Made by a program: the position numbers and the translations under genes. A stretch of DNA of 64,000 nt, taken from assembly GCA_963837925.1 (NCBI GenBank), contig CAWIPK010000006.1, positions 107,962-171,961 of the forward strand, in the 5' to 3' direction. Below, one piece after another: positions 3,480 to 48,189 of the stretch. The notes beneath the pieces were generated by a model that had not been told where the DNA came from, searched no databases, and saw nothing but the letters and a program-made list of their open reading frames with translations. This DNA is from an uncultured Chloroflexia bacterium. GTDB lineage: Bacteria > Chloroflexota > Anaerolineae > CG2-30-64-16. Every line of letters begins with the position of its first letter. Within the stretch, counting starts at the first letter, position 1.

Positions 3480-4460
3480 TTATGTCGTGGCCGGCAATCT
3501 CAACGCCAAAACGTCCAGCGCCAACCGGGCGTTGACGTTCGACCTTAGCCGGCGCGCGGTGTGCAGCACATCCTGCAGCGCGCCCTCCACCTGCCGCGAG
3601 CTGTACCGCTCAGCCTGTTCGGCCAACTGGTCACGCCGATCGAGATTGACGATCGCGCCGGGCGCACCGTGCTGAATCAGCAAAATGTCTCGCCACCAGG
3701 TGGCCCAGAGGCCCAGGGTCTGCTCGAGCGTTTCCGGCTGGCGGCTGATCTGCTCGCTTAAGCCGAGACGCGCCATGCGCCCCTCACCGGTCACTGCCTG
3801 TAGTTCGTCCAGTCGCCGGGCCCGTTCATCCCAGAGCTCGTGCTGAGTGTGGGCACTCACCGCCCACCCCAGCCGTCCGGCGCTCAACCGGGCCAGCAGT
3901 TCGGCCCGTTGCGGCTGCACGTTCCAACGCTGCACCAGCGCTGCCTGGACTTGCTCGAGCGGCAATGGGCGCAAGCCAACCACCTGGCAGCGCGACAGAA
4001 TGGTCGGTAGGACCTGATCGCGCCGGACACAGGTCAGCAACAGCATCACGTGAGGGGATGGTTCTTCCAGGGTCTTGAGCAGCGCATTAGCCGCGGCTGG
4101 GGTAGCGCGTTCGATCTCGCGGATGATGAAGATCTTGCGCCGGCCTTCGAGCGGTGACAGCGCAGCATCGGCTTGCAGGCCACGCACTTGCTCGATCTGG
4201 ATCGTGTTCTTCTCAGCCATCACGAACTGCAGGTCGGGATAGCGAGCCGCGGCCAGCCGCTGGCAAGTTCGGCACACGCCGCACGGGACCCCTTCAGCTG
4301 CCTCGCACAAGAGGGCCTGCGCGAAGGCCCTGGCAAGCATCCTCTTGCCTACCTGGAGCGGGCCGGTAAACAAATAGGCGTGGCTAAGCCGGTCGCTGGC
4401 GATGGCGCGCTCCAGCAGATCCACTGCCCATTCGTGTCCTATTACCGGCCAATCGGCCAT
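3480..4460 (-). CDS. holB: DNA polymerase III delta-prime subunit
   Basis: AAA+ clamp-loader motifs: HAYLFTGPLQVGKRMLA, Cys4 zinc module CGVCRTCQR, and SRC motif (LSRCQ). holB-yaaT synteny as in Bacillus. Confidence 0.8.
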   Translation of the reverse strand: MADWPVIGHEWAVDLLERAIASDRLSHAYLFTGPLQVGKRMLARAFAQALLCEAAEGVPCGVCRTCQRLAAARYPDLQFVMAEKNTIQIEQVRGLQADAALSPLEGRRKIFIIREIERATPAAANALLKTLEEPSPHVMLLLTCVRRDQVLPTILSRCQVVGLRPLPLEQVQAALVQRWNVQPQRAELLARLSAGRLGWAVSAHTQHELWDERARRLDELQAVTGEGRMARLGLSEQISRQPETLEQTLGLWATWWRDILLIQHGAPGAIVNLDRRDQLAEQAERYSSRQVEGALQDVLHTARRLRSNVNARLALDVLALRLPATT

Positions 4461-29086: not shown

Positions 29087-29099
29087 TTGGTCCTTCCTC

Positions 29100-29888
29100 C
29101 TATGGGAAAAGCTCGTTCATCGGCGTGCGGCTTTGCGCGCCGTTCGCACCCGCCACAGCTTCCTGGGTCACCCGGACCCCGAGGGCCTCGCTCAGCGGCG
29201 CTTCGTGCGAGTTGCCCATCTTATCCAGCAAGTGGTGGTGTTCGGCCAGCAAGGCCTTGCCGGCGGCAAACTCCCCAGCGCAGATGGCTGCCACGATGCG
29301 CTCATGATAGGTCCAAACAGTTTGCAGGTAGCTCAGGTCGGCGTAGGTGTTCAGCTCGACTGCTTCATAAGCGTCCCAATATGCCTCTAGCAGACCCTGG
29401 ACGAAGAAGTTTGTCAAGCGGCTGTAGATCATCAGGTGAAATTGGCGATGCTCGGCGTGGGGGATCTGAATGCGCTCGAGATTGAGCTTGGCCCAGGCGC
29501 GTGCGACCAGTTCCTGCAGGGTTCCCCGATCGGCATCCGTCAGCAAGGCGACGGCCTCGTCCCAGAATGCGACCTCGAGGTGAATGCGCAGCGTGCTGTA
29601 CGCTCTGAACATGCGCCGGTCCAAGGAAAGTGCCACCATCAGGCTGAGCCGGACGGCGGGCAGGAACTCGTAAGCCCGGCAGCGGATACCCCGCCTCGGG
29701 CTGACCTCGACGAGCCCGAGGGCGCGGGCCACCTCCAGTTGCTCGCGCAGCTTCCCGACGCTGATGCCGGTCTGCGCGCTGATCTCGTCCAGGGCGGGCA
29801 GGCGCGCGCCGACCTCGAAGCCCTGGGGCTCGGCAGCCTTGGTGAGCAGATAACGCAGAAAATCCGAGTCGATTGCGGAGAGAATCAA
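29100..29888 (-). CDS. GntR-family transcriptional regulator (FadR/FCD C-terminal domain). TTG start.
   Basis: N-terminal HTH (LPALDEISAQTGISVGKLREQLEVARALGLV). AAGGA ribosome-binding site 10 nt before the TTG at 29888. Divergent from gdh2. Confidence 0.75.
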   Translation of the reverse strand: MILSAIDSDFLRYLLTKAAEPQGFEVGARLPALDEISAQTGISVGKLREQLEVARALGLVEVSPRRGIRCRAYEFLPAVRLSLMVALSLDRRMFRAYSTLRIHLEVAFWDEAVALLTDADRGTLQELVARAWAKLNLERIQIPHAEHRQFHLMIYSRLTNFFVQGLLEAYWDAYEAVELNTYADLSYLQTVWTYHERIVAAICAGEFAAGKALLAEHHHLLDKMGNSHEAPLSEALGVRVTQEAVAGANGAQSRTPMNELFP

Positions 29889-31487: not shown

Positions 31488-33185
31488 TTACTGCAGCACG
31501 GCGCCCTGGCTGGCGCTCGTGGCCAGGCGAGCATAGCGACGCAGCCACCCGGTCAGTGGGAGCCCAACGTGCGGCTGCCAGGCAGCGCGGCGGCGCGCCA
31601 GCTCCTCGGCAGACAGATCCACTCGCATGCTGCCCTCCGGGATGTCGATGTCGATTATGTCGCCCGTCTGCAGCAGTCCGATAGGACCGCCTTCGGCCGC
31701 CTCCGGGCTGACGTGGCCGATGCAGGCGCCGCGGGTGCCACCCGAGAAACGGCCATCGGTGATCAGGGCGACGGAGGACTCAAGCCCCATACCGGTGATA
31801 TTCGAAGTCGGCGCCAGCATCTCTTGCATGCCCGGCCCGCCTTTCGGCCCCTCATTGCGAATGACAACCACGTCGCCCGGCTTCACCTCGCCGTTGAGGA
31901 TCCCGGCGTTGGCCTCGTCGTGGCTCTCATAGACGCGGGCGGGACCGCGATGGCGCAGCATGCCTGGCAGGACGCCGGCCGTCTTCACGACTGCTCCATC
32001 GGGCGCAAGGTTGCCGAACAGGATCGTCAGGCCGCCGGTCCGGCTGTAGGGATTCTCCAAGGTCCGGATGCAGCCCGTATCCTGGCTGTCGCAGCCGTCG
32101 ATGTTCTCGCCAAGGCTCTTGCCGGTGACGGTCTTCTGCTCCAGGTGCAGCACACCGGGCTTCTTGCTCAACTCCCACAGGATTGCGCTGACGCCGCCGG
32201 CCCGACCCACGTCCTCCATGTGATAGGCCGAAGACGGGCTGACCTTGCACAGGTTGGGGACGCGCGCGCTGACTTCGTTCAGGCGGGCGAGGGGGTATTC
32301 GATGCCGGCCTCGTGGGCCAGGGCGATGGTGTGCAGGACGGTGTTGGTGCTGCCGCCCATCGCCATGTCGAGGGCAAAGGCGTTATCGATGGCTTCAGGA
32401 GTGATGATATCAAGCGGTTTCAGGTCCAGGTCGATCAGGGTCAGCACCTGCCGGGCCGCCGCCTCTGCCAGTTCCTCGCGCGCCGGATCGGTGGCCAGGA
32501 TGCTGCCATTGCCCGGCAGGGCCACACCCAGCGCCTCACACAGGCAGTTCATGCTGTTGGCGGTGAACAGGCCCGAACACGAACCGCAGGAAGGGCAGGC
32601 GAAGTCCTCGAGCTCCTTGAGCTGCACATCCGACAGGTTGCCCGCCTGATACGCCCCGACGCCCTGGAAAACGCTGATCAGGTCAACCGTCTGCCCGCTC
32701 GGCGTGTGACCGGCAGCCATCGGCCCGCCGCTAATGAAAATGGTCGGGATATTGCAGCGCACGGCACCCATCAGCATGCCCGGCACGATCTTGTCGCAAT
32801 TGGGGATGCAGATCAAGCCGTCAAACTGGTGGGCCTTGACCATGGTCTCCACGCTGTCGGCGATCAACTCGCGACTCGGCAGGCTGAATTTCATGCCGAT
32901 GTGGCCCATGGCAATTCCGTCGTCGACCCCAATGGTGTTGAACATGAACGGGATGCCTCCCGCCGCGCGCACCGCCCGGCGGACGACCTCGCCGAACGCA
33001 TTAAGGTGCACGTGTCCGGGGATGATGTCGACGTAGCTGTTCGCGATCGCGATGAACGGCTTGCCGAAATCCTCGTCGCTCTGGATGACGCCGGTCGCTT
33101 TCAACAAGGCCCGGTGCGGCGCCCTTTCGAAGCCCTTTTTGATCAGATCCGAGCGCATGTGGCGCCCATTTGTGTTCTTAGCCAT
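31488..33185 (-). CDS. ilvD: Dihydroxy-acid dehydratase
   Basis: ILVD_EDD motifs ([25 protein letters not shown]). True start MAKNTNGR at 33185 with GGAGG ribosome-binding site. The track ORF is extended to 33329. Confidence 0.85.
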
Positions 33186-33234
33186 AAAACCTCCGCGATC
33201 AAAGTCGCTACTTTGGATGTGAGAACGTGAAGGA

Positions 33235-34305
33235 TCAGAGCGCGCCGACCACGAGATCGCCCATTTCGATCGTGCCAACCTGCGGCTGTCCGGGCAGGGC
33301 CAGATCGGCCGTGCGATGGCCGGCCGCAAGTACGTTGTCCACCGCGGCCTCGACGGCGGCAGCCTCTTGCGCCAGCCCCAGCCCCGAGCGCAGCAACATA
33401 GCGGCGCTGAGAATGGTCGCCAACGGATTGGCGATACCGCGGCCGGCGATGTCGGGTGCGGAACCGTGGATGGGCTCGAAGAGCCCGGGACGGCCGCTGC
33501 CCAGCGAGGCCGATGGCAACATCCCCAACGAGCCGGTCAGCATGGACGCTTCGTCAGAGAGGATGTCGCCGAACATGTTTTCGGTGGCGATGACGTCAAA
33601 GTCGGCCGGACGACGGATCAGGTACATGGCGCACGCGTCGACCAGCAAGTCCTCGCAGGCCACGTCGGGGTAATCGCGTGCCACCTCGTGGGCTACTTCG
33701 CGCCAGAGGCGCGAGGAGGCCATCACGTTCGCTTTGTCGACAGAAGTGACCTTCTTGCGGCGCAAGCGCGCCAGGTCAAAAGCCACCCGCATCAAGCGCT
33801 CGATCTCTCCCTCGCTATAGCGCAGCGTGTCGACCGCCGAGCGGCCCTGCGGCGTGACCTCACGGCCCTGCGGTTGGCCAAAGTACAAGCCTCCTGTCAG
33901 CTCTCGCACGATTACCAGGTCCACTCCGGCCACGCTTTCCGGCCGCAAGGGGCTGGCCAAAGCCAGTGCGGGGCGAACCGTCACCGGGCGCAGGTTTGCG
34001 AACAGACCCAGCTCCTTGCGTACGCCCAGCAAGCCCTGTTCCGGGCGCACTTCGGCGCGCGGGTCGCTCCACTTGGGCCCGCCGACGGCGCCGAGCAGCA
34101 CTGCGTCCGCGGAGCGGCAGGCCTCAAGGGTCTCGGGAGGCAAAGGATCCCCGGTCTCATCGATCGCGATCCCGCCCATCAGGGCTTCGCCAAAGCTAAA
34201 CTTATGACCGAACCGGCCGGCGACCGCTTCCAACACCTTGCGGCCCTCGGCTACGACCTCCGGCCCGATGCCATCGCCGGGAAGTAGAGTGATCCTCGCG
34301 TCCAT
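33235..34305 (-). CDS. leuB: 3-isopropylmalate dehydrogenase
   Basis: [39 protein letters not shown]. 356 aa. Confidence 0.85.
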
Positions 34306-34331
34306 TTACGATCCTTTGCTCAGATTGACGT

Positions 34332-34387
34332 GTTCGGAAACCAATTTGTTCGAAAATCGCGCGTTGGAAAACTAAGCGTTCGCAAAC
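34332..34387. repeat. Four direct repeats of GTTCGnAAAC (plus-strand reading) at 15-16-bp spacing in the 107-nt cimA-leuB intergenic spacer
   Basis: gttcggaaac / gttcgaaaat / gttggaaaac / gttcgcaaac at 34332, 34348, 34363, 34378. AT-rich relative to the genome. Confidence 0.6.
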
Positions 34388-34412
34388 GTCCTTTGGTAGC
34401 TCCGGCCAGCGG

Positions 34413-35963
34413 CTAGGCGTTCAGGATCGCGTACTCCATGCTATCAGCCAGCGCGCGCCAGCTGGCCTCGATGATATTGGTGCTGGCGCCGACGGTGCTC
34501 CAGCGCAGGCCCTCGCTCTTGGTGTCGATCAGCACGCGGGTGGTCGCGGCCGTGGCCGTGTCGCTGTCGAGGATGCGCACCTTGTAATCGACCAGCTTCA
34601 CTTTCGACAGTTTGGGATAAACGTCGAGCAGTGCCCGGCGCAGGGCCATGTCCAGGGCGTTGACGGGCCCATTGCCTTCGCCAACCGTGTGCATGATCTT
34701 CGGCCCGACGCGCAGCTTGATCGTGGCCTCGGCCAGCACCCCACGACCGCGCCGCCGTTCTACCAGGACCATGAAATCGATCAACTCAAAGGGCGGCACG
34801 TAACCGGCCTGCGCGTGGCGCAGCATCAGGTTCACCGAGGCTTCGGCGCCTTCAAATGTGAAGCCCTGCGCCTCCAGCTTCTTGATCTGCTCGAGCACCT
34901 CGCGCGTCTGATTGCTGCCTGCTTCCAGGCCCAACTGAGCAGCTTTGTCGATAATATTGCCGCGCCCCGACAGCTCGGAGACAATCGTGCGCCGCACGTT
35001 GCCAACCAGTGCCGGGTCGATGTGCTGGTAGCTCGAGTCATTCTTGAGCACGGCCGCGGCGTGCAGTCCCCCCTTGTGGGCAAACGCGCTGGCGCCGACG
35101 TACGGCAGGTGATCGTCGTGGGCCAGGTTCGCCACTTCGGCCACGAAACGCGAAAGCTCGGTCAGGCGGCTCAGCTTCTCGGGTGCAATGCACGGCAGAC
35201 CCATTTTGAGCTGCAGGCCGGGGATGACCGAACAGAGGTTAGCGTTGGCGACGCGCTCGCCATAACCGTTGATCGTACCCTGCACTTGAACGGCCCCGGC
35301 GCGCACGGCAGCCAGCGTGTTGGCTACCCCACAGCCACCATCGTCGTGGGTATGTATGCCAATGGGCAGCGCCAACTCAGCCGCCACGCGGCTCACGACC
35401 TCCTCGACCTCCCAGGGCAGGGCGCCACCGTTGGTATCGCAGAGCACCAGCACCGATGCGCCATTCGTGGCGGCCGCACGGAGGGTCGCCAGGGCGTAGT
35501 CGGGATCGGCCTTGTAGCCGTCAAAGAAGTGCTCGGCGTCGTAGACCACTTCCTTGCCACCGGCTTGCATGTAGGCCACGCTCTCGCCGATCATGGCCAG
35601 GTTCTCAGCCAGCGTCGTCTCCAGTACCTGGAGCACGTGCAGGTCCCAGGTCTTGCCCACCAGGGCCACCGCCGGCGTCTCGGCATCGAGCAAGGCCCTG
35701 AGGTTGGCGTCGTCCTCGGGACAACTGTCTTTGCGCCGGGTGCTGCCGAAGGCGACCAACTTCGAGTGCGTGAGGCCCAGCGTGCGCACACGCTGGAAGA
35801 ACTCTACGTCTTTGGGATTGGAGCCCGGCCAGCCGCCCTCGATATAGTGGATGCCGAACTCATCCAGTTTGCGGGCAATCTTCAGCTTGTCATCGGCTGA
35901 CAACGAGACGCCCTCACGCTGAGTCCCGTCGCGCAGGGTAGTATCATATAGTTGTATTGTCAA
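34413..35963 (-). CDS. cimA: (R)-citramalate synthase (LeuA/HCS superfamily with C-terminal regulatory domain). TTG start.
   Basis: MTIQLYDTTLRDGTQREGVS... is typical of CimA (not LeuA, which is also present). 516 aa. GGAAGGTGG ribosome-binding site before the TTG. Confidence 0.7.
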   Translation of the reverse strand: MTIQLYDTTLRDGTQREGVSLSADDKLKIARKLDEFGIHYIEGGWPGSNPKDVEFFQRVRTLGLTHSKLVAFGSTRRKDSCPEDDANLRALLDAETPAVALVGKTWDLHVLQVLETTLAENLAMIGESVAYMQAGGKEVVYDAEHFFDGYKADPDYALATLRAAATNGASVLVLCDTNGGALPWEVEEVVSRVAAELALPIGIHTHDDGGCGVANTLAAVRAGAVQVQGTINGYGERVANANLCSVIPGLQLKMGLPCIAPEKLSRLTELSRFVAEVANLAHDDHLPYVGASAFAHKGGLHAAAVLKNDSSYQHIDPALVGNVRRTIVSELSGRGNIIDKAAQLGLEAGSNQTREVLEQIKKLEAQGFTFEGAEASVNLMLRHAQAGYVPPFELIDFMVLVERRRGRGVLAEATIKLRVGPKIMHTVGEGNGPVNALDMALRRALLDVYPKLSKVKLVDYKVRILDSDTATAATTRVLIDTKSEGLRWSTVGASTNIIEASWRALADSMEYAILNA

Positions 35964-36043
35964 TCAGTCCCACCTTCCCGATAGAGGCCTCCCTGAAAGA
36001 GGATGCCGCTTGCCGTCTGGCGCACGCCGCCTGACGTCCCACC

Positions 36044-36235
36044 TCAGCCACTCCAGGCCCCATGGTAATATGACCACTCGAAGTCGTCACCTTCGGGGTG
36101 CATGGCGGCCCGTTCCGCCTGGTTTGTCTTGTCATCGGGGTCGCCCACCACCGCTGAATGCAATCCCGCCTCCCGCGCATCCCAGGTTCCCGGCTGATTC
36201 TGGCCGGCCGGTATCAGCTGACTTTCCTGTGTCAT
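36044..36235 (-). CDS. Small hypothetical protein (63 aa) embedded in the leucine operon
   Basis: GGAGGGTGG ribosome-binding site 5 nt upstream of the ATG (36235). Sequence MTQESQLIPAGQNQPGTWDAREAGLH...EGDDFEWSYYHGAWSG. No recognisable family. Confidence 0.4.
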   Translation of the reverse strand: MTQESQLIPAGQNQPGTWDAREAGLHSAVVGDPDDKTNQAERAAMHPEGDDFEWSYYHGAWSG

Positions 36236-36248
36236 GGCTTCCACCCTC

Positions 36249-36503
36249 CTAGCGATTATAATACGCCATAAGAGCATCGTTGACGAACTGCCCCCCGCAC
36301 GCCGGCGTCATGGCCGGCGCGTTCAGGCAGTCCGCCGGTGCTTGCGAGCCTTCCACTCGGCCGACAGCCTCCCGCGCGACGGCGGTCGTGCCGATGGAGT
36401 TCAACACGTTGTAGCGTTCCATGAGTCCTATAAGGTGTCCGGCGGCTGCGTCCGCATACACCGCCGCAACAAGTTCCTCCTGGCGTTCTCGATCGCGCAT
36501 CAT
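36249..36503 (-). CDS. Small hypothetical protein (~84 aa) embedded in the leucine operon
   Basis: GGAGG 9 nt upstream of the ATG at 36503. Sequence MMRDRERQEELVAAVYADAAAGHLIGLMERYNVLNS...ACGGQFVNDALMAYYNR. A/T-ending codons are enriched relative to neighbours. Its stop is 13 nt before the next small ORF. Confidence 0.35.
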   Translation of the reverse strand: MMRDRERQEELVAAVYADAAAGHLIGLMERYNVLNSIGTTAVAREAVGRVEGSQAPADCLNAPAMTPACGGQFVNDALMAYYNR

Positions 36504-36549
36504 TTCCCTCATCCTCCGTATTTTACGCCGGCAGCCACAAAACCATAAG

Positions 36550-36599
36550 CTTGTCAGTCCCCATCAAACCTCGTCAGCCCCCGTCAGCCCTTCTCAGCC
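36550..36599 (-). repeat. Five 10-bp-phased direct repeats GGCTGAcGrG (minus strand) between leuD and the first small ORF
   Basis: ggctgagaag gggctgacgg gggctgacga ggtttgatgg ggactgacaa. TGAC recurs every 10 bp, on the same helix face. Confidence 0.55.
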
Positions 36600-36624
36600 G
36601 CTATGATACCTCGTGCAACCCTCG

Positions 36625-37227
36625 TCAGGCGTGCACCCGCGCTGGGTGCGCTTGCTCGTAGCCCTGGATGTGCGGCTCCTGGGAGACCAGGTAACCCAGC
36701 TCATCTACCCCCTGCAGCAAGCAGGCCTTGCTGAAACTGTCGATTGGGAAGTGTACCGCGCGGCCATCGGGCAGGGTAAGGCTCTGAGTGGCCAGGTCGA
36801 TCGTCAGCGTCAGATCCGTGTCCTCAGCCGCCAGACTGAATAATTGCTCATGCGTTGCGCGATCCACTATCACGGGCAGCAACCCGTTCTTCAGCGCGTT
36901 GTTGCGAAAGATGTCGGCGAACGACGTGCTCACGACAGCGCGGAAACCAAAATCGGCCAACGCCCAGGGTGCATGTTCGCGGCTGGAGCCGCAGCCGAAG
37001 TTATCGCCGGCGAGCAGTATCCGCGCCCCGGATGCGCCGGGCTCGTTCAGAGGGAACTCGGGCCGGGGCCGGCCAGCGGCGTCATAGCGCCAGTCGTTGA
37101 ACAGGTGCTCGCCCAGGCCGGCTTTGCTGGTCGTCTTCAGATAGCGGGCCGGGATGATCTGATCGGTGTCGATGTTCTCCGATGGGACGGCGACCACGCG
37201 GCCGGTGAGAGTTTTGATGGGTTGCAC
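36625..37227 (-). CDS. leuD: 3-isopropylmalate dehydratase small subunit
   Basis: LeuD/aconitase swivel domain ([13 protein letters not shown]). 200 aa. Confidence 0.85.
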
Positions 37228-37238
37228 GGCGTCCTCCT

Positions 37239-38651
37239 TCAGTCGGCCAAGGTGCGCGCGTCGGTGACGACGCCCCGCAGGGCGGTCGCAGCGGCGGTGA
37301 GTGGGCTGGCCAGGAACGTGCGGCCACCCGGCCCCTGGCGGCCCTCGAAATTACGATTGCTGGTGCTGACCGCATACTGGCCCGGTTCGAGCTGGTCCCC
37401 ATTCATGGCGATGCACATGCTGCAGCCGGGCTCACGCCACTCAGCGCCAGCCTCGCGGAAGATGTTGTCCAAGCCTTCGGCCTCGGCCTGGCGCTTGATA
37501 GCCTGGGAACCGGGGACCACCAGGACTCGGGTGGAGGCGTTCACCTTGCGGCCCCGCAATATCGCCGCCGCCTGGCGGAGGTCGCCGATGCGTGAGTTCG
37601 TGCAGCTGCCGATGAACACCACGTCCACGTGGTGTCCCAGCAGTGGCTTACCCGGCTCCAGCGCCATGTAGGCGAGGGCCTTGCGCGCCGCCTGGCGCTG
37701 GCTTACGTCGGCCAACTCGTCAGGATCGGGCACGGGCGCGCTGATCGGAATACCCATGCCCGGGTTGGTGCCATAAGTGATCATCGGCTCCAGGATGCTC
37801 GCGTCCAGCGTGACGCTGCGATCGTAGAACGCGCCCTCGTCGCTGGGCAGGTCGCGCCAGGCGGCCAGCGCCTTGTCCCAATCCTCACCTTGCGGGGCGA
37901 AGGGCCGTCCTGCCAGGTATTGCAGAGTCGTTTCGTCGGGCGCGACCATGCCGGTGCGCGCGCCGGCCTCGATGCTCATGTTGCAGACCGTCATACGCTC
38001 GTCCATCGACAGCGCACGAATCGCCGGCCCCAGATATTCGATCGCGTGCCCGGTTCCGCCGCCGACGCCGATCTTGGCTATGAGGGCCAGGATGATGTCC
38101 TTGGCACCGACGCCGGAGCAGAGCGCGCCGTCGACGTGCACTGCCAAGGTTTTCGGCTTGCGCTGCAGAAGGCACTGGGTGGCCAGCACGTGCTCGACCT
38201 CGCTCGTGCCGATACCGAAGGCGAGCGCGCCAAAAGCGCCGTGGGTTGCAGTGTGGCTGTCACCGCAGACGATGGTCATGCCGGGCTGGGTGAACCCGAG
38301 CTCCGGGCCGATCACGTGGACGATCCCGCGGGCAGGACTGTCCATACCGTACAGCCGAATGCCGAACTGCCGGCAGTTCTCCTCCATCTGCGCGATCTGC
38401 CGCGCGGCCAGTTGGTCGACGGCGGCGGAACCCGGCGGGGTGGTGGGCGTGCTGTGGTCCATCGTCGCCACCGTCTGGCCCGGGCGGCGCACCTTCAGCC
38501 CCCGCTCGCGCAGGCCCTGAAACGCCTGCGGCGAAGTGACCTCGTGCACGAGGTGCAGGTCGATGTAGAGGACAGCGGGGCTGCCCGGCTCCTCGTGGAC
38601 GACGTGGGCCGCCCAAATCTTCTCAAACAGCGTTCGCGGTTTGACGCTCAT
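37239..38651 (-). CDS. leuC: 3-isopropylmalate dehydratase large subunit
   Basis: Aconitase family Fe-S ligands (GSCTNSR, CGDSHT, PGCSMC). 470 aa. Confidence 0.85.
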
Positions 38652-40266
38652 CAGTCCCCTTTTCCTCGCGTGCCGTCAGCATCTTGTTCAAAGCGCTCAT
38701 GTAAGCGCGCGCTGCGGCGACGATGATATCGTTGTCGGCTCCGTGGCCACTGAAAGTGCGAGCGAACGATTGGCCGGTCTGCGGGTTGAAGACGCTGTCG
38801 GTATCGCCATTGTGCGGCTGAATGCGAATCGTCACCTCGCCAACGGCATCGATCCCCTCGGTGACGGCCTTGATACTGAACTCGGTCAAGGTATTGACCA
38901 CGCCTACCACACGGTTGATCGCCTTGTAGACGGCATCGACCGGGCCCGAGCCCAGGGCCGCATCCTCATAAACCTTGCCATCTGGTCCGGCCAGGTTCAC
39001 GGTGGCCGTCGGAATGCTGTGGTCACCGCAGGAAACCTGGATGTGGTTCAGGCGCCATACCTCACGCGGCTGGTAGATCTCGTCGGCGATGATGGCCTCG
39101 ATGTCCGCATCGGTAACTATCTTCTTCATGTCGCACAGGCGTTTGAAGCGTTCGAAGGCCAGGTTGACGTCGGTGTCGGACAAGTCGGCGTAGCCCAGGT
39201 CGTCCAGATGGGAGCGAAAGGCGTGGCGTCCGGAGTGCTTGCCGAGCACCAGTCGGGAGGCCAGCAGGCCGACCGTCTCCGGCCGCATGATCTCGTAAGT
39301 CAGGCTGCTCTTGAGCATGCCATCCTGGTGGATGCCGGCTTCGTGGGCGAACGCGTTCGAGCCGACGATCGCCTTGTTAGGCTGCACGACCATGCCAGTG
39401 TAGGCGCTGACCATGCGACTGGTGCGCGTGATTTGCGCCGTATCGATGCCCGTGTGCAAGCCGAAGACCTGTGGCCGGGTGGCGATGGCCATCACCACTT
39501 CTTCCAGCGAGGTGTTCCCCGCCCGCTCGCCGATGCCGTTGACGGTTACCTCGACCTGGCGGGCGCCGGCGCGCACGCCGGCCAGGGTGTTGGCCGTGGC
39601 CAACCCGAGGTCGTCGTGGCAGTGCACCGACCAGACCACCCGCTCGGCGCCCGGCGTGTGCTTGATGAGGTATTCGATCAGGGAGCCGTACTCCTCGGGC
39701 GTAGTATAACCGACAGTGTCCGGAATGTTGAGCGTGGTCGCGCCGGCCTTGATGACCTCGCCCAGCACCACGGTCAGGAACTGCGGATCGGAGCGAGCCG
39801 CGTCCTCGGGCGAGAACTCGACGTCATCGCACAGGCCGCTGGCATAGGCCACCGCGTCGATCGCCCGCTGGATGCACTCCTCGCGGTCGATCTTGAGCTT
39901 GAACTGCAGGTGAATGTCGCTGGTGGCCAGGAAAGTGTGGATTCGGTGCCGGGGCGCCGACTTGACGGCCTCGTAAGCGCGCGAGATATCCGGCTTGCTC
40001 GCGCGCGCCAGGCCGGCGATCACCATCGGCTGGCCGGACTTGCGTCCCTCAGTCAGCGGGCCGACTTCCTCGGCGATGCGCCGGACTGCCTCGAAATCAC
40101 CCGGCGAGGCGATCGGGAAACCCGCTTCGCAAATGTCGACACCCAGGCGCGACAGTTGATGGGCGATCTCCAGTTTCTCGTCGATATTCAGCGTCGCGCC
40201 CGGCGACTGCTCACCATCCCGCAAAGTGGTGTCAAAGATCAGCAGGGTATCGTCAGGATCGCTCAT
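38623..40266 (-). CDS. leuA: 2-isopropylmalate synthase (with C-terminal LeuA dimerisation/regulatory domain)
   Basis: [20 protein letters not shown], and 547-aa length that includes the LeuA_dimer domain. Confidence 0.85.
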
Positions 40267-40317
40267 AGAAGCTTCTCCCCCGTCCTAATCACTCTTGGCA
40301 TGCTGGCTGCTGCTCGG

Positions 40318-40839
40318 TCACGCGATTCCATTGTGCGCCGGCTCAGGATGATAGCCATTGCCGCGCACCATGGCCACTCGACCGGTGCGCACCATTTCCA
40401 GGATGCCGAAATTCTCCAACAGCTTGATCAGCGAGTCGACCCGATCTTCCGGCCCGGTGATCTGGATCGTCAGGCAGTCGAGTGAGACGTCGACGATGCT
40501 TGCGCGGTATATCTCGGCCAGTTGCAGGATTTCTGCCCGGTTCGCACTGCTGGCCCGGACCTTGATCAACACCAGCTCGCGCTCGACGGTTGGCTGGTGC
40601 GTCACATCCTGGATCGCGGTGACGTTGATCAACTTGAAAAGCTGCGTCTGGACCTGGCTCAGCTCTCGCTCGTCGCCGTCGACGACAAAGGTCATCCGGC
40701 TGATGCCGGGCTTCTCGGTGTGGCCGACGGTCAGGCTCTCGATGTTGAAATTGCGCCGCCGGAACAGGCTCGACACCCGGTTCAACACGCCGGGCTTGTC
40801 TTCCATCCAGGCAATCATGGTGTGTTCCATAGTTGTCAT
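40318..40839 (-). CDS. ilvN: Acetolactate synthase small (regulatory) subunit
   Basis: ACT domain [27 protein letters not shown] start/stop overlap with ilvB at 40836-40839. The track ORF is extended to 41118. Confidence 0.8.
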
Positions 40840-42557
40840 GCCTCTTCTGCGTTGAGCATGTCTGGCAGCGGCCGGCGGATCATATCGGCATTGCTTCGGC
40901 CCGGTGCCACCATCGGATAGACGTTGCTGAACGGATCGACCTTGAAATTGATCAGGAACGGGCCGTTGTGTGCACGGGCCTGCTGGATCGCGCCGTCCAC
41001 ATCCTCCTTGCAGGCAACAGTGATGGCCGGGATGGTATAGGCTTCGGCGATCTTCAGGAAGTCCGGGTTGAACAGCGGCGTCCCGGCATAGCGTTGCTCG
41101 TAGAAGATGTCCTGCCACTGGCGCACCATGCCCAGATAGCCATTGTTGATGATCGCGATCTTGATCGGCAGTCCCTCGGCCACGACAGTAGACAATTCCG
41201 GCATGGTCATCTGGAATCCGCCATCACCTGCCACGACCCACACTTCCTCATCGGGCCGGCTCATCTGCGCCCCGATGGCCGCGGGGAGGGCAAAGCCCAT
41301 GGTGCCCAGGCCGCCGGAGGTGATCAAGCTGAGGGGGTGGATGTGGGGGAAGTACTGGGCCTCCCACATCTGGTGCTGGCCGACGTCGGTGACCACGATG
41401 CAGTTGCCCTCGCCGGTCTGGTACCACAGCTCGCGGATGATGTAGGGCGGGATGAGCTCGTCCGCCTCACGCGCCAGCACATCGCGCCGGTCGGTATCGC
41501 CACGCCACTCAGCGATCTGGGCCAACCAGTCCGGGTGCTTCTTGGGCTCGGTCAGGGGGATCAGTTGGCGCAGCGTAAGCAGGGCATCGCCAATGACCGG
41601 CGTGTCGACGGTCATCGTCTTGCCGACCTCGGCGGGATCGAGGTCGATGTGGACGATGCGTGCCTTCGGCGCGAAGCTACTGAAAGCCCCGGTCAAGCGG
41701 TCGTCCAGCCGAGAACCGACGGACACAAGGATGTCGCATTCCTGGATGGCGTAGTTCGTGTATGCCTCGCCGTGCATCCCACCCATACCTATGGCAAGCG
41801 GGTGGGTGGCCGGCAGGGCGCCGATGCCCAACAAGCTGCTCGCGACGGGGATGCTTGCCCTCTCGGCCAACTCGCGCAGCTCGGCAGTCGCCTTCGCCAG
41901 CATCACCCCGTGGCCGGCGATGATCAACGGTCGTTCGGCTTCGTTGATGAGCCGGGCCGCCCGGGCGATGGCCTGCGGATCGGCTGCGCTGAGAGCCGGG
42001 TCGTAGCCCGGCAAGTGTATGGTGGTAGGATATTCCAGCTCCATTTCAGCTTGCTGCACGTCTTTGGCGATATCGACGAGGACCGGACCGGGTCGCCCAG
42101 TGCGGGCGATGTAGAAGGCTTCAGTGAGGGCGTCGGGGAGATCCTGGATCCTGGTGATCAGATAATTGTGCTTGGTCACCGGCAAAGTGACCCCCGCGAT
42201 GTCCGCCTCCTGGAAGCCGTCTCGCCCCAGCAAAGAGGTTGACACCTGGCCGGTAATGGCGACCACGGGCGAGGAGTCCATAAAGGCAGTCGCCAGCCCG
42301 GTGACCAGGTTCGTGGCGCCAGGACCCGAGGTGGCCAGGCAGACGCCGACTCTCCCACTCGCGCGTGCGTAACCGTCCGCCATGTGCGACGCGCCCTGTT
42401 CGTGGGTCACGAGGACGTGGCGGATTGGGTAGCGATACTTGGCCAGCGCGTCGTAGATCGGCAGTGTCGCGCCACCCGGCAAGCCGAAGACGACGTCGAC
42501 GCCTTCGTGGAGCATGCTCTCCCACACGATCTGGGCCCCGCTCTTTCTTTCCCTCAT
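40836..42557 (-). CDS. ilvB: Acetolactate synthase large subunit (TPP/FAD)
   Basis: 573 aa. TPP motif GDGGFQM...NN. N-terminal VFGLPGGA. Confidence 0.85.
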
Positions 42558-42660
42558 CTAGTCCCCCTATGAATCCTGGCTCAAGAAAACGCGCCCAGCC
42601 GGAACAGGGTCCGGTGGGCGCCTTTACCCAGCAGCACGCACGCTGCGAACGATATCGGGC

Positions 42661-42692
42661 ACGAAAAAGGGCCTCCCTTCTTGGGAGGCCCC
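42661..42692 (-). terminator. Attenuator terminator in the ilvB leader: GGGGCCUCCC-aagaa-GGGAGGCCC followed by UUUUUCGU
   Basis: Perfect 9-10-bp GC stem plus U5 tract, 105 nt upstream of the ilvB start and 35 nt downstream of the leader-peptide stop. Confidence 0.6.
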
Positions 42693-42726
42693 TGGCTTGA
42701 CAGCTTTGCGACGGTTACGGTCTGGC

Positions 42727-42816
42727 CTACGTCCTCCCAACGGGTAGCGGCTCCATAAGCGACAGGCTTAGGAGCACGCTAATAATAAGAACGATTACCA
42801 GGCCGTAGTGTGGCAT
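42727..42816 (-). CDS. ilv-leu leader peptide MPHYGLVIVLIISVLLSLSLMEPLPVGRT (29 aa; 15 of 29 residues Ile/Leu/Val)
   Basis: GAGGAAG ribosome-binding site 8 nt upstream. Run of branched-chain codons (VIVLIISVLLSLSL). The leader coding sequence contains GGGAGG, which can pair with the CCUCCC 5' arm of the downstream terminator (antiterminator). Confidence 0.55.
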   Translation of the reverse strand: MPHYGLVIVLIISVLLSLSLMEPLPVGRT

Positions 42817-42860
42817 CAACTTGACTTCCTCAGCTTACGTGCCTTGCGTTAACGCCGGGG

Positions 42861-42889
42861 ATGCTAACATAGTCTTTTGCATCTGTCAA
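42861..42889 (-). promoter_or_regulatory. Sigma-70-like promoter for the ilv-leu super-operon (TTGACA-N17-TAGCAT)
   Basis: Minus-strand ttgacagatgcaaaagactatgttagcat. ~45 nt upstream of the leader-peptide ATG. Confidence 0.45.
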
Positions 42890-42967
42890 ATGACGTTTTC
42901 CGCACGTCCGCCAATAACGCGGAGCGCCTTTCCCGCAAAACCGCCTGGTTTTTGCCCGGCTCTCAAC

Positions 42968-44110
42968 TCAGTCGCGCGTCTCGCCCAGCGAACGCAGGAC
43001 GCGAACCAGCACTTCAACCCCCTGGACCCACTCGTGCAAGTCGATATGTTCCTCGGGCGTGTGATCCAGGCTGCTGTCGCCGGGCCCGTAGGCCAGGATC
43101 GGGCAGCGCCAGACCGGGCCAACCACGTTCATATCCGAGGTCCCGGTCTTGAGCAGAAAGCCGGGCCGCCCGCCACCCTCACGGATGGCCTTCAGGAAGG
43201 CGCGCGCGAGCAAGCTGTCCTTCTCGGCCTGGTATGCGACCTCGCCGCCGCGAAACGCCAGCTCGACGCCCCCCGCCAGTTCTCGCAGGATGGACTTCAG
43301 TTCCTCAGGGCCCAGTTCGGGCGGCAGGCGGAAGCCGAGCCTGAGGTGCGCCTCCTCGAACAGACCGTCATCACTCGAGTCAAAGCCGGCCAAGGCGGGC
43401 AAGACCTGTTCCCAGGCACGCAGGCGTCCGGCATTCCATTGGGCAAAGTGAGCCTGCACCCGGCTCCAAAAAGCAATCGCCAGCTCAGGGGCGGTCGCCA
43501 GGCGCCCGCTGCGGTGTGAGATCGGTTGGCGCACCGTCGCGTCGACCAGCAGCCGCCCTTTGTAGCCCACCGTGACCCGCTGCCAGCCACTGGGCTCCCC
43601 GATGACGGCCAGGGCCGGCTGATGCTGCGGCGCCAGGTAGCGCGCTCCCTTAGACGTAGCCGCCTCCTCTTCCACTGCGCCGGCGACCACAATCCGCCAG
43701 CCTGGCGGCGCGCCGGCCTGCGCCGCCGCAGTGGCGAAGGCCACGAGTGCGCCCTTTGCATCCACAGAGCCCCGTCCGAAGAGCCGGCCATCCTGCACGA
43801 CCACGGGCGGGTGCCCCCGCACCGTGTCGATGTGCCCCAGCAGCACGATCTCCTTCACCCCCTCGCCTGCGAGGCCGCCGTCGTCTGCGAGGCCGCCCTC
43901 GTCTGCCGCGGCCGGGCCGCCTTCCAACACACCCACCGCGTTGCCCGCCGCATCCATGAAGGCCCGGAAACCATGCGCCGCCATCCAGTCGACCAGAAAC
44001 GCGCTGGCATCGGCTTCCTGGCCGGACGGCGAGGGGATCGCGACCAGGTCCTGCAGCAACTGCAGCCCGCCGGCGTCTCGCGTCGCCAAATCACTCCTCC
44101 AGACATCCAA
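42968..44110 (-). CDS. lysK: [LysW]-lysine hydrolase / ArgE-family M20 deacylase
   Basis: M20 motifs [24 protein letters not shown]. Last gene of the lysW cluster. Confidence 0.7.
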
Positions 44111-44154
44111 GTACTGAAGCGACGACCTGTCCGGTCGTGGCCGTGCCGCCCAGG

Positions 44155-45123
44155 TCAGGAGTTCAGCGTCCCGCCGGCCAGCGTGCGCGTCACCGCCCGC
44201 CGGACGCGCCGCGCGGCGCTATCCCGTCCGAGATGCTCGAGCAGCAGCGCCGCGCTGAGGATCGCGCCCACCGGATCAGCGATCCCACGGCCGGCGATGT
44301 CGGGAGCGCTGCCGTGTACTGGCTCGAAGACGGCGGCTGGTCCGACCCCGACATTGGCCGAGGGTGCGACGCCGAGCCCGCCGATGAGGCCCGCCGCCAG
44401 GTCCGACAGGATGTCGCCGAACAGGTTCGTGGTCACCAGCACGTCGAAGCGGGCCGGCTGCTTGACGAGCCACATGGCAGCCGCGTCGACCAGCATCTCC
44501 TCTGTCCGCACGTCGGGATATTCGGCCGCCACGCTCAGACACGTCTCGCGGAACAGGCCGTCAGTCAGCTTCAGGACGTTTGCCTTGTGTACGATCGTGA
44601 CGGTCGCGGCATTGGGGCTGGACCTGCCGCCGGCGAGCCGGGCCAGCGCGCGCCGGCGGGCCTGCTCGAAGGCCACACGCGCGATGCGTTCGCTGGCTTT
44701 GCGTGTCACTACCCGTTCAGCGACCGCCGTTTCCCCCTCTCGACGCTCGCGGCCGCTGTACATACCCTCCGTGTTCTCGCGCACGATCAACAGATCCAGC
44801 ATCGGCTGACCGGGAAGAAGCGTCTTCGCCGGGCGCAAGTTGGCATAGAGATCGAAGTCCCGCCGCAGGGCAAGGATCGGGCTGGCATAGCCTGCCACCG
44901 GCCCATTGGGCGATTGGTTCGCGCCGAAGAGCGTGGCATCGACCGACGCCACGGCGGAGCGGGTCGCCTCGGGCAGAGCGCTGCCGCTGCGCTGAAAACA
45001 GTCCCAGCCTGCCTCGGCCTCGACAAAGCGCAGATCGGGTTCGATGGCCGCCAGCACCTGGGCCGCGGCCGGTATGACCTCGCGGCCGATACCATCGCCG
45101 CCGATCAGACAAATCACTGCCAT
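44155..45123 (-). CDS. Homoisocitrate dehydrogenase (short IDH/IMDH-family enzyme, 322 aa)
   Basis: [35 protein letters not shown]. Context with hcs and homoaconitase. Confidence 0.75.
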
Positions 45124-45647
45124 GTGGCATACCTGCGCTTGAGCATAGGGATCAGCCCGCCCGCCTGGATAATCTGCAAAAGCGACGGCGACAGCGGCGG
45201 GAAGGTGAACGTGCGCTCGCCGCAGAAGACCCGGCAGGTCTTGGGGTCCACACTGACGGTCGCGCCGGCCGGGATCGCCCTGGCTGCCTCTGGGCAGATA
45301 ACGGGCAGCACGCCGTTGTTGACTGCATTGCGAAAGAAGATCCGGGCAAACGATACGGCGATGATGGCCCCCACGCCCGCCGCCGCCAGGCAGGTCACCG
45401 CCTGTTCTCGGCTCGAGCCGCAGCCCCAGTTGCGGCCGGCCACAATGATGTCACCGGGTCTGACGCCGGCGGCAAAGCCGGAATCCAGGTCTTCGAGGGC
45501 GTGCTCCGCCATCTGCCGGGGATCGGTCAGCGTGTAAGTGTACTTGCCCGGAAAGATGACGTCGGTGTTGACGTCATCGCCGTATTTCCAAACGCGGCCC
45601 GCCAGAGGACGGGGCGGTCCTTCTGGACTCTCAATCAGGCTTCCCAT
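45114..45647 (-). CDS. lysU: Homoaconitase small subunit (LeuD-like)
   Basis: [13 protein letters not shown] swivel motif. 177 aa. Confidence 0.75.
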
Positions 45648-46975
45648 TGCGCATCCTCTTCAGTATCTGTAACAGCGCGTGGGTCGACAATCCGGCCGGC
45701 CACCGCACTGGCAGCCACCACTGCCGGGCTGGCAAGGTAAACCTCACTCTCGGCGGTGCCCATCCGGCCGCGGAAATTGCGGTTAGCGCTGCTGATCGTC
45801 ACTTCGCCAGGGGCCGGCACGCCCATGTGGTTACCCATGCAGGGTCCGCAGCCCGGCGTGCCAAGCATGGCACCGGCGGCCAGGAAGGTATCGATGTAGC
45901 CCGCCGCCAGCGCCGCCCGCAGCACCTCGCTCGAGGCCGGGATCACCAGGAGGCGCGTGCCGGTCGCCACGCGCCGCACGCGACCGTCAGGGCCTCGCAG
46001 CACCGACGCTGCCAACTTAAGGTCCTCCAAGCGCGCATTCGTGCAGGTGCCGAGAAAAGCCTGGTCCACATGCACGCCGGCCAGCGCTGAGACCGGTACC
46101 ACGTTGTCCGGGCGATGCGGCGCGGCCACGAACGGCTGCAACTCACCCAGCTCGAGGCTGTGGTGGGCCATATAAGTGGCATCTGCGTCGGGGAACAGCG
46201 CGCCCTCGGCGATACGCTCCAGGCACGCGTCGGCCGGTTGGCCGGTGCGCGCGGCAACCCGGCCGGCCAGCCAGCCGTACACCGCGCGGTCCGGCGGCAG
46301 GTAGGCGTTCTTGACCCCGGCTTCGGCCATCATGTTCGGCAGGACCATCCGGCTTTCAACGCTCAGGCCGGCAATGCCGGGACCGGAGAATTCCAGCGCG
46401 CAATAGATGCCCGCCCCGGGGCCCAGCCGCTGCAGGACCGAGAGGCTCAGATCCTTGGCGCTTACCCAGGGCGGCAAGCTTCCCGCCAGGTGAACGAGGA
46501 TGGTTTCTGGCACGCGCAGCCAGAGTTCGCCGGTGGCCCAGATGGCGGCAACCTCGCTGCGGCCCACCCCGGCGCCGAAGGCGCCCAGCCAACCGAAGTG
46601 CGTGGTGTGGCTGTCTGCGCCGAGGATCAGTTGGCCAGGCCATACCAGGGCCTCTTCGCTGATAACCTGGTGGCAGATCCCACGTCCCGCCTCGTAGAAG
46701 TGCGAGATGCCCTGTTCGGCCACGAATCGACGCACCTCGGCATGGTTGGCGGCGTGCTGCGTGCTAGGCGCCGGGACGGCATGGTCGAGAGCGATCGCCA
46801 GCCGCTCGGGGTCCTTTACGCGGCCGGCCCCCAGGCTGCTAAAGATGCGCGCGATGGCCGCAGTGTTGTCGTGGCTCAACACGACTTCCGGCCGGGCGTC
46901 GACGATCTGTCCGGCCACGGCCGACGGCAGGCCTGCGGCGCGCGCCAGGGCTTTTTCGGCGAAGGTGTGTCCCAT
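45635..46975 (-). CDS. lysT: Homoaconitase large subunit (LeuC-like)
   Basis: Aconitase ligands [20 protein letters not shown]. Start taken at MGHTFAEK. Confidence 0.75.
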
Positions 46976-46986
46976 CTGACCCTCTC

Positions 46987-48189
46987 TCATCCGACACTGG
47001 CCGGCGCATCTTCGGCCAGGCTGAGCACCGCCTCCAGCCCCGCATCATGGTGGCCGTTCGCCCACAGGCGGAGCAGATCATCCACGTCGTCCAGCGTGAG
47101 ACGCTTTTCGTCGGCCAGGGCCTTAATGTGCCGCGTGAGCGCCTTGATCTGTTCGGTGCTGAGCGACAGGCCCAGTTGCTCGGCGCGGCCCTTGACCGCG
47201 TTCCAGCCGGTCAGACGATGGGCGATCGAGACGTAGCGTGTCACCCCGAAATCGTGCGGATCGAGCGCCTCATAGGTTTCCGGGGCGTTGAGGATGGCCT
47301 TCGCATGGATGCCGGCCTTATGCGTGAACGCGCAGTATCCGGTGACGCAGTTATTGAATGGAATATCGACGCCGACGAGCTCGGCCACCAGGAGCTCCAG
47401 GCCGCGCAGCTGGTCGAGGCGATACTTCTGGCGCACCGGGTCGCGATCCCAGGTATACATGCGGGCGAGGAAGCCTCCCAGCGAGGCGATCCCGTTGCGC
47501 TCGCCGATGCCAAGCACGGTCGTGTCGACGTGCGTCGCCCCGGCTTCGAGGGCGGCGAAGGCGTTGGCGACGGCACAACCAGAATCGTTATGGCCGTGAA
47601 ACTCGATGTCCGCCTGCGTCATGCGGCGCAGGGTGCCGACGATGCGCGTTACCTGGCCCGGCGAAGCGATGCCGACGGTGTCGGCAATGCCGAGACGATT
47701 CACCACGCCCAGGCGATCGACCGCCAGGTAGACCCGAAACAGGTCGGCCTCCTCGCTACGGAACGAATCCTCCGTGCTGAAGCGCAGGACGATGTCCGGC
47801 GCCTGCGCCCTGATCCAGCTCAGCACGTCGGCGGCCAGATCGATGATCTCCTCGATGCTCTTGCTGTGGCTGAAGCGGCGCAGGGCCGAAGAGGTGCCGA
47901 TGACGACGTCGAGGCCGGCTACACCTGTGTCGAGGGCCACGCGCGCGTCTTCCTTCTGGCAGCGGATGTGCGTCAGGACCTTCGCCTTCAAGCCGAGGCG
48001 TGCGATGGCGCGGGCATCTTCTGCGCTGCCGGGCGAGGCCAGCGGTGAAGTCAGCTCCAGGCACTCGACGCCGAACTCGTCCAGCGCCCGGGCAACCTCG
48101 ACCTTCTGCTCGTGAGTGAAGTTGGCGTTAATGAACTGCTCGCCTTCGCGCAGCGTCGAATCGATGATCGCATATTGTTCAAGTGACAT
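46987..48189 (-). CDS. hcs: Homocitrate synthase (NifV/HCS-type, 400 aa, no LeuA C-terminal domain)
   Basis: [24 protein letters not shown]. Its length excludes LeuA or CimA. Confidence 0.75.

Follow-up and report, generated by a model that had tools for sequence, protein, structure and literature searches.

A leader region upstream of a branched-chain amino acid operon

In the current work, a 64,000-nucleotide (nt) stretch of DNA from an uncultured Chloroflexia bacterium (contig CAWIPK010000006.1; this whole stretch, with a G+C content of 65%, is referred to as the window) was analysed with respect to a short leader region located, on the minus strand, directly in front of a gene cluster for the synthesis of isoleucine (Ile), leucine (Leu) and valine (Val). 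This cluster has the order ilvBN-leuACD-cimA-leuB-ilvD, and its leader encompasses, from 5' to 3', a promoter-like site, a Shine-Dalgarno-like sequence, a small open reading frame (ORF) particularly rich in codons for Ile, Leu and Val, a hairpin resembling an intrinsic terminator (T1) and a second terminator-like hairpin (T2) (Table 1). Together with the conservation and covariation described below, this arrangement points to a leader that probably acts as a classical ribosome-mediated transcription attenuator of the operon.

An initial annotation of this locus had claimed a TTGACA-N17-TAGCAT promoter, a 29-codon Ile/Leu/Val-rich ORF with a ribosome-binding site, and a GC-rich hairpin followed by five U residues (U5) at 105 nt from ilvB, all in front of a nine-gene operon. 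The promoter, the ORF and the hairpin were each recovered on the minus strand, and the terminator is indeed positioned before ilvB, although the distance from U5 to the ilvB ATG (42557) is 106 nt rather than 105 nt. The operon contains eight recognisable enzyme genes, not nine, each of which is identified by an NCBIfam equivalog above its cut-off.

Table 1 Leader elements and operon genes, given in window coordinates.
Feature	Position	Strand	Details
Promoter (sigma-70-type)	42861..42889	-	-35 TTGACA 42889-42884; 17-nt spacer with TG; -10 TAGCAT 42866-42861
Shine-Dalgarno-like GAGGA	42827..42831	-	10 nt to ATG; 7 nt to in-frame TTG 42819
Leader ORF	42727..42816	-	29 codons + TAG, MPHYGLVIVLIISVLLSLSLMEPLPVGRT; ATG 42816, TAG 42729-42727
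Region 1 (putative anti-antiterminator strand)	42787..42793	-	CGUUCUU; codons 8-10; pairs with GGGAGGACG (42738-42730) in minimum free energy folds of untranslated RNA
P1 hairpin within ORF	42750..42775	-	GCUCCUAAGC, loop CUGUC, GCUUAUGGAGC; codons 14-23
Region 2 (putative antiterminator strand)	42733..42740	-	UUGGGAGG; codons 26-28; ends 3 nt before stop codon
Terminator T1 (predicted)	42664..42692	-	5' arm GGGGCCUCCC 42692-42683; loop AAGAA 42682-42678; 3' arm GGGAGGCCC 42677-42669; U5 42668-42664
Region 3 (partner of region 2)	42681..42688	-	CCUCCCAA; T1 5' arm + loop
T2 hairpin	42583..42621	-	GCGCCCACCGGACCCUGUUCCGGCUGGGCGC 42621-42591, then GUUUUCUU 42590-42583; ends ~30 nt before ilvB start
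ilvB	42557-40836	-
ilvN	about 40830-40318	-
leuA	40266-38623	-
leuC	38651-37239	-
leuD	37227-36625	-
cimA	35963-34413	-	citramalate synthase
leuB	34305-33235	-
ilvD	about 33160-31488	-

Promoter and leader peptide

The promoter-like site matches at 10/12 positions and is the sole site of this kind which a promoter scan returned on the minus strand within 42000-43500, an interval containing two such sites when both strands are considered, as compared to 0.2 +/- 0.5 in shuffled sequences. Its position would place the transcription start near 42854, approximately 38 nt 5' of the leader ORF. In relatives, TATACT/TATAAT-like -10 boxes could be read from the sequences at 35-45 nt upstream of the corresponding leader ORFs.

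The leader ORF, for which an in-frame TTG provides an alternative start, contains seven Leu, four Val and three Ile codons. The majority of these constitute a run at codons 6-20 (6 Leu, 3 Ile, 3 Val), and two further Ile/Leu/Val codons are located at positions 24 and 26. When the best 15-residue stretch was determined for all 630 six-frame ORFs of 12-60 amino acids in the whole window (the leader ORF and 629 others), the leader ORF was an extreme outlier with 12 Ile/Leu/Val residues, the next best value being 8. Several of its codons are rare, namely CTT and CTA (each used twice), GTT, GTA and ATT (used twice), which in the operon genes represent 4%, 1%, 7%, 7% and 12% of their synonymous sets, respectively (in the order listed), a usage that is expected if the speed of the ribosome is the sensor. 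The locus combines a promoter, a ribosome-binding site and an ORF that is predicted to be translatable and is enriched for the codons of the operon's own products. No further copy of such an attenuator was detected elsewhere in the window, either by the short-ORF survey or by a scan for the pairing pattern described below.

Conservation of the leader among Chloroflexota

The closest IlvB proteins, sharing at best 74% identity, are encoded by metagenome-assembled Chloroflexota genomes labelled Anaerolineae, Ardenticatenaceae, Promineifilaceae or Caldilineales, and 27 Chloroflexota loci (class Anaerolineae) fetched with IlvB were used as the comparison set. In 25 of these 27 loci, ilvB is preceded by an Ile/Leu/Val-rich ORF and, 25-45 nt after this ORF, a GC-rich hairpin, the stem of which runs directly into a U-run in all but two loci (L002 and L046). 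A pattern scan of metagenomes yielded one true additional member, a contig (L081) whose leader is preceded by a TTGACA-17-TATACT promoter, and one chance match (L082); an Ile/Leu/Val-rich leader ORF thus recurs in relatives, in 25/27 loci plus L081. The gene content in front of the leader varies from locus to locus, so the element travels with ilvB.

The leader was absent from the Acidobacteriota, Sorangium and other non-Chloroflexota ilvB loci that were examined. As a separate observation, ilvB of Acidobacteriota (Terriglobales-like) is preceded, at a distance of ~60-300 nt, by another conserved element of ~110 nt which ends in a terminator-like hairpin (seen in L026, L030, L035, L040, L044, L055 and L072; sequence ...GGGUGAGCUGAGAAAC.GGAAAUCGUAAGUGCUCCCGAAUCCCACCCGCCAGA...GGUGGGUUUUG). 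This element shows no evident ORF rich in Ile/Leu/Val codons, was not matched by any Rfam family at gathering score, and may represent an undescribed cis-regulatory RNA.

Mutually exclusive RNA structures

The T1 hairpin has a predicted stability of -22.5 kcal/mol (ViennaRNA) and is separated from the leader ORF by a spacer of 34 nt. It was not picked up by a simple consensus terminator scan, in our reading because an extension of its stem by G-U and A-U pairs uses up two of the five U residues. The full leader folds far more stably than its shuffled versions (z = -4.84; 0/200 as stable), and an equivalent of T1 was present after the leader ORF in all 20 relatives that were folded, in 18 of which the U-run follows directly after the stem (the exceptions being L002 and L046).

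The initial annotation had further noted that GGGAGG in the last codons of the ORF can pair with CCUCCC in the 5' arm of the terminator. This complementarity is real, and in the window it extends to the eight nucleotides of region 2 (UUGGGAGG, 42740-42733) and region 3 (CCUCCCAA, 42688-42681); across relatives, the pairing is accompanied by compensatory changes. A scan for GTTGGGAGG-N(20-50)-CCTCCCAA gave a single match in the window and none in 100 shuffled sequences. The antiterminator and terminator conformers are isoenergetic (-22.8 vs -22.5 kcal/mol). In every relative the 3' end of the leader ORF is complementary to the 5' arm and loop of the terminator, and both strands co-vary: the window pair UUGGGAGG:CCUCCCAA is replaced by CUGUUGGG:CCCAACAG in L005, L008, L009 and L015, by CGGUUGGG:CCCAAUCG in L007, by CCGGUUGGAAGG:CCUUCCAACCGG in L011, by GCUGGGAG:CUCCCAGC in L012 and by CCGUUUGGGAG:CUCCCAAACGG in L046.

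Covariation of this 2:3 helix was computed on a MAFFT alignment of 20 leaders. The fraction of paired cells was 79.6% as compared to 69.0% in shuffled alignments (0/500), the covariation score was 0.274 as compared to 0.130 in shuffled alignments (0/500) and 0.03-0.08 in slid registers, and 8/13 pairs had changed on both sides. Cognate duplexes of regions 2 and 3 were also more stable than permuted ones (mean -19.3 vs -15.6 kcal/mol; p = 5e-5). Five loci that had not been used to define the helix (L004, L016, L020, L021 and L041), as well as L081, fit it by eye. The motif UGGGAG is found in another reading frame in L008, L012 and L002, and its retention despite the differing frame indicates that selection acts on the RNA and not on the peptide.

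A second hairpin, P1 (-17.9 kcal/mol), is located within the ORF itself, where Leu codons of the form CUCCUN pair with a downstream AAGGAG or CGGGAG. Here, 92.4% of cells are paired, six of the eight pairs show changes on both sides, and the covariation score is 0.397, as compared to 0.208 after shuffling (0/500) and 0.10-0.14 when the register is slid. The conserved peptide motifs "K/R-E/D" and "P-V-G" correspond to the 3' arm of P1 and to region 2, respectively.

For untranslated RNA ending ahead of the terminator, folding placed region 2 onto the Ile/Leu/Val codons, both in the window and in almost all relatives. Folding suggests that P1 forms the tip of the resulting 1:2 protector helix, which including P1 reaches -44.3 kcal/mol; a role of P1 as a pause hairpin is also possible. 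In many relatives the 1:2 pair is UUAGCCUCC:GGGAGGCUA, and this pairing accounts for the conserved Ser codon within the hydrophobic run. In the GC-rich clade, cognate 1:2 duplexes are more stable than permuted ones (-26.1 vs -20.8 kcal/mol; p about 1e-4). As judged from these sequence comparisons, covariation supports the P1 and 2:3 pairings and, for the GC-rich clade only, the 1:2 pairing.

A proposed attenuation mechanism

Folding was performed with the nucleotides under the ribosome masked and with the nascent RNA extending up to the terminator loop. When the ribosomal A site was placed at codons 8-16, the nascent RNA adopted the antiterminator, when it was placed at codons 18-26, the 1:2 helix re-formed behind the ribosome, and for a ribosome positioned on the stop codon the terminator fold was obtained for the full leader. 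Masking by a stalled ribosome thus switches the predicted structure from terminator to antiterminator.

The following sequence of events is proposed. As long as no ribosome occupies the Ile/Leu/Val run, region 1 would pair with GGGAGGACG, with P1 at the tip of the helix. If Ile, Leu and Val are plentiful, the ribosome would reach the stop codon and, because this codon is located 3 nt past region 2, the terminating ribosome would cover region 2, allowing T1 to form and transcription to end at U5. Should one or more of the three charged tRNAs run short, the ribosome would stall in codons 6-16, many of which are rare, so that region 1 is masked and region 2 is free; the freed UUGGGAGG would then pair with CCUCCCAA once the latter has been transcribed, T1 would be blocked and RNA polymerase would proceed into ilvB. 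On this model, control would be multivalent, responding to the supply of charged tRNA for Leu, Val and Ile, a mixture that fits an operon comprising common (ilvBN, ilvD), Leu-specific (leuABCD) and Ile-specific (cimA) steps.

The interpretation of the leader as a classical ribosome-mediated transcription attenuator for ilvBN-leuACD-cimA-leuB-ilvD, already put forward in the initial annotation, is supported by mask folding, conservation and covariation, and we assign to it a probability of about 0.85. A number of points weigh against it. The distance of 10 nt between the Shine-Dalgarno-like sequence and the ATG is slightly long, and translation of the leader ORF is a prediction from its sequence; likewise, we infer termination at T1, a response to tRNA charging and transcription-translation coupling in this organism. 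In the AT-rich (Ardenticatenales-like) clade, cognate 1:2 duplexes are no better than permuted ones (p = 0.31), and the controls applied to the covariation scores only partly remove phylogenetic relatedness. The equilibrium fold of the full-length leader always prefers the terminator, and the switch must therefore be kinetic, like the textbook cases. Finally, T2 is left unexplained by this mechanism, and an efficient, unregulated T2 would block expression after antitermination at T1.

A second hairpin before ilvB

T2 has a predicted stability of -22.5 to -24.1 kcal/mol, and an equivalent hairpin with a U-run is present in about 20/26 leaders, plus L081 (the bearers being L001, L003, L007, L009-L015, L017-L021, L038, L041, L045, L046 and L081). 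If it is an efficient terminator, T2 must itself be controlled, and the leader might accordingly be a two-stage attenuator in which T1 is sensed by the ribosome and T2 represents a further regulated checkpoint, either for a second signal or for proofreading of leakage through T1, both of which would have to be passed. The recurrence of a strong hairpin between T1 and ilvB is in line with such an arrangement, as are the stem base shared across the GC-rich clade (GACGCCUC/GAGGCGUC-like), the apical part of T2 in L017 and L018, which differs in sequence with its pairing kept, and the existence of tandem attenuators in Salmonella mgtCBR (PMC3641672). We nevertheless consider it unlikely, as no sensor was found for T2, no conserved second ORF lies between T1 and T2, there is no Rfam match, the hairpin is absent from L005, L006, L008, L004, L016 and L002, and that of L081 has a weak U-run.

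Three specific candidates for the function of T2 were rejected. A relay in which the freed 3' arm of T1 pairs with the 5' arm of T2 gave -9.4 kcal/mol in the window as compared to -10.2 +/- 2.5 kcal/mol in shuffled sequences, and in most loci, including the window, these duplexes were no better than shuffles; the low permutation p-value obtained for the relay most likely reflects base composition. A second leader ORF between T1 and T2 was neither conserved nor enriched for Ile/Leu/Val codons and had no consistent stop position, and T2 is unique in the window, as opposed to being a dispersed palindromic repeat. Were the two-stage arrangement to exist, it would allow ribosome-driven antitermination to be told from accidental read-through, or a second signal to be integrated, and the mechanism would be one without a described precedent among amino-acid operons; T2 is the only part of the leader that possibly holds something new.

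Two further observations concern the region around T2. A perfect palindrome of 16 base pairs (GGAAACGGCCGTTTCC), or close variants of it, occurs once or twice between T1 and T2 in five Promineifilaceae-like loci (L001, L003, L009, L010 and L015) and could be an operator or a hairpin; its 10-nt core AACGGCCGTT is absent from the window. In L015, the 5' untranslated region between T2 and ilvB (~3800-3980) is filled with tandem repeats of ~9 nt (CCTAATTAC/CCCAATTAC).

Alternative explanations for the leader ORF

The leader ORF, together with a terminator of its own, might instead be the gene of a small hydrophobic membrane peptide, adjacent to ilvB by coincidence or acting in trans. The peptide sequence is suggestive of one transmembrane helix (LVIVLIISVLLSLSL), a C-terminal '(K/R)(E/D)xxPVG(R)' pattern is common to relatives, and trans-acting leader peptides exist, as exemplified by peTrpL in Sinorhizobium (PMC7298713). 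However, the 'KE' and 'PVG' residues are encoded by the RNA pairing strands (AAGGAG of the P1 3' arm and GUUGGG of region 2, respectively), which covary with their partners, and the frame-independent retention of UGGGAG in three loci argues in the same direction. The length and sequence of the peptide otherwise vary freely, rare codons are used, and the element is always located before ilvB whatever its upstream genes. The window peptide has no match in Pfam or NCBIfam, and the best peptide match obtained was that of a relative's peptide to IlvL (NF007744; 11.1 bits, E = 0.22, cut-off 59 bits). A membrane or trans-acting peptide is therefore very improbable as the explanation of the leader, while a secondary role of the peptide in trans is conceivable alongside attenuation.

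According to another explanation, the leader is a tRNA- or metabolite-sensing RNA, such as a T-box, a riboswitch or a protein-binding attenuator, whose ligand stabilises the antiterminator and for which the ORF is irrelevant. T-boxes do occur in Chloroflexi, for example at ileS and trp genes of Dehalococcoides (PMC2494555), and alternative terminator and antiterminator structures alone do not reveal the sensor. As the initial annotation had expected, a covariance-model search for the T-box (RF00230) was negative, both at gathering score and at E <= 10 within 42450-43050. With Rfam 15, no family reached its gathering score anywhere in the window, nor in the leaders of 14 related loci; at E <= 10 the leader scan returned only Phe_leader (16.6 bits with a gathering score of 55; E = 5.2), confined to the terminator hairpin. 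The conserved segments between promoter and terminator are only the Ile/Leu/Val-coding run and the pairing strands, which leaves no room for an aptamer or specifier-loop domain, and an unrelated sensor would leave the enrichment for Ile/Leu/Val codons in >25 divergent loci unexplained, so that we give such a ligand-sensing RNA hardly any credence.

Operon and gene neighbourhood

The genes downstream of the leader plausibly form one transcript, and no minus-strand terminator-like site was found within 31488-42000. The gap of 660 nt between leuD and cimA (35964-36624, minus strand) contains two ORFs of 87 and 63 amino acids (36512-36249 and 36235-36044), each preceded by a GGAGG-like Shine-Dalgarno sequence and neither with a match in Pfam or NCBIfam. 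No ilvC was detected by tblastn anywhere in the 64 kilobases. In relatives, a gene of ~340 amino acids is located between ilvN and leuA (6289-7317 in L003), where the window has only 51 nt (40267-40317); from its GYGSQGHAHSLNL motif, this gene presumably encodes the ketol-acid reductoisomerase IlvC.

The ilvB promoter is immediately preceded by a LysW-type alpha-aminoadipate lysine cluster (42968-48189, minus strand), which encodes [LysW]-lysine hydrolase, homoisocitrate dehydrogenase, the small and large subunits of homoaconitase, and homocitrate synthase, and which was found upstream of the leader in none of the relatives. Beyond the downstream end of the ilv-leu cluster, the minus strand encodes (27248-29888) a regulator of the GntR/FCD family (29888-29100) and, next to it, the alpha subunit of a 2-oxoacid:acceptor oxidoreductase (29086-27248).

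Discussion

The leader described here gives the main branched-chain operon of a little-studied phylum, the members of which are in this case mostly uncultured, a well-supported regulatory annotation. Its 29-codon ORF is skipped by gene finders, and no library of RNA or protein families covers it; a seed alignment for an Rfam family could be built from the ~27 aligned examples. The odd conserved residues of the peptide (Ser, Lys/Arg-Glu, Pro-Val-Gly) find an explanation as RNA pairing strands, and the family implies, if indirectly, that ribosomes in Chloroflexota follow closely behind RNA polymerase and that transcription and translation are coupled closely enough to permit attenuation. The family would widen the range known for leader-peptide attenuation, although the conceptual gain is modest as the mechanism is that of the textbooks.

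In Escherichia coli and Salmonella, ilvGMEDA is controlled by an attenuator with a leader peptide of 32 amino acids, IlvL, which confers multivalent control by Ile, Leu and Val, and the ilvBN attenuator encodes the leader peptide IvbL. The leader in the window resembles those of E. coli ilvGMEDA and ilvBN in that a short ORF packed with Ile/Leu/Val codons and an intrinsic terminator precede the first biosynthetic gene. It is further predicted to share with them three pairings that exclude one another (1:2, 2:3 and 3:4), a stop codon beside region 2, and the response to all three amino acids. It differs in that there is no sequence relationship, in its phylum and operon content, and in possessing a covarying P1 inside the ORF and a second terminator-like hairpin downstream.

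The leaders of actinobacterial ilvB genes (Corynebacterium glutamicum ilvBNC / ilvB-II motif), for which a three-hairpin model has been proposed (PMC10272879, PMC11857589) and attenuators have been predicted across Actinobacteria (PMC1262725), likewise sit immediately before ilvB, in a lineage that is high in GC and not proteobacterial; unlike the leader in the window, they control ilvBNC only, encode different peptides and show no sequence relationship to it, and Chloroflexota are not among the reported sources of such leaders. The ilvB-OMG and Leptospira ilvB motifs, reinterpreted as predicted attenuators with upstream ORFs (PMC10272879), similarly consist of a conserved RNA before ilvB with an upstream ORF rich in branched-chain codons. 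Their peptides are also threonine-rich, which the window peptide is not, and neither motif matched the window leader at E <= 10 or the 14 related loci at gathering score.

The ribosome-mediated attenuation proposed here for a combined ilv-leu operon has counterparts beyond Proteobacteria and Actinobacteria in Staphylococcus aureus, where the attenuator peptide is Leu-rich (PMC5794164), and in the ilv leader of Listeria (PMC5864092); those leaders act together with CodY, encode peptides biased towards Leu or Ile and have no sequence relationship to the leader in the window. The T-box, as found in Bacillus subtilis ilv-leu and at some Chloroflexi genes (PMC2494555), follows the shared logic of a choice between terminator and antiterminator according to tRNA charging, but recognises uncharged tRNA by direct binding and requires a domain of ~200 nt, and no T-box signal is present in the window.

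As of 2010, leader peptides had, according to one statement, been recorded in no phyla other than Proteobacteria and Actinobacteria (PMC2965389). The related premise of the initial annotation, that branched-chain operons outside Proteobacteria and Corynebacterium are usually taken to be regulated by T-boxes or CodY, is outdated: control of ilv/leu genes by leader peptides has been described or predicted in Actinobacteria (PMC1262725) and subsequently in the Firmicutes S. aureus (PMC5794164) and Listeria (PMC5864092), and it is predicted for Leptospira and ilvB-OMG (PMC10272879). A full-text literature search returned no report of an ilvB leader-peptide attenuator for Chloroflexi or Anaerolineae, an earlier description being still possible. 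Set beside these systems, the Chloroflexota ilvB leader is rated by us as a new sequence family, absent from Rfam, Pfam and NCBIfam, of a well-known kind.

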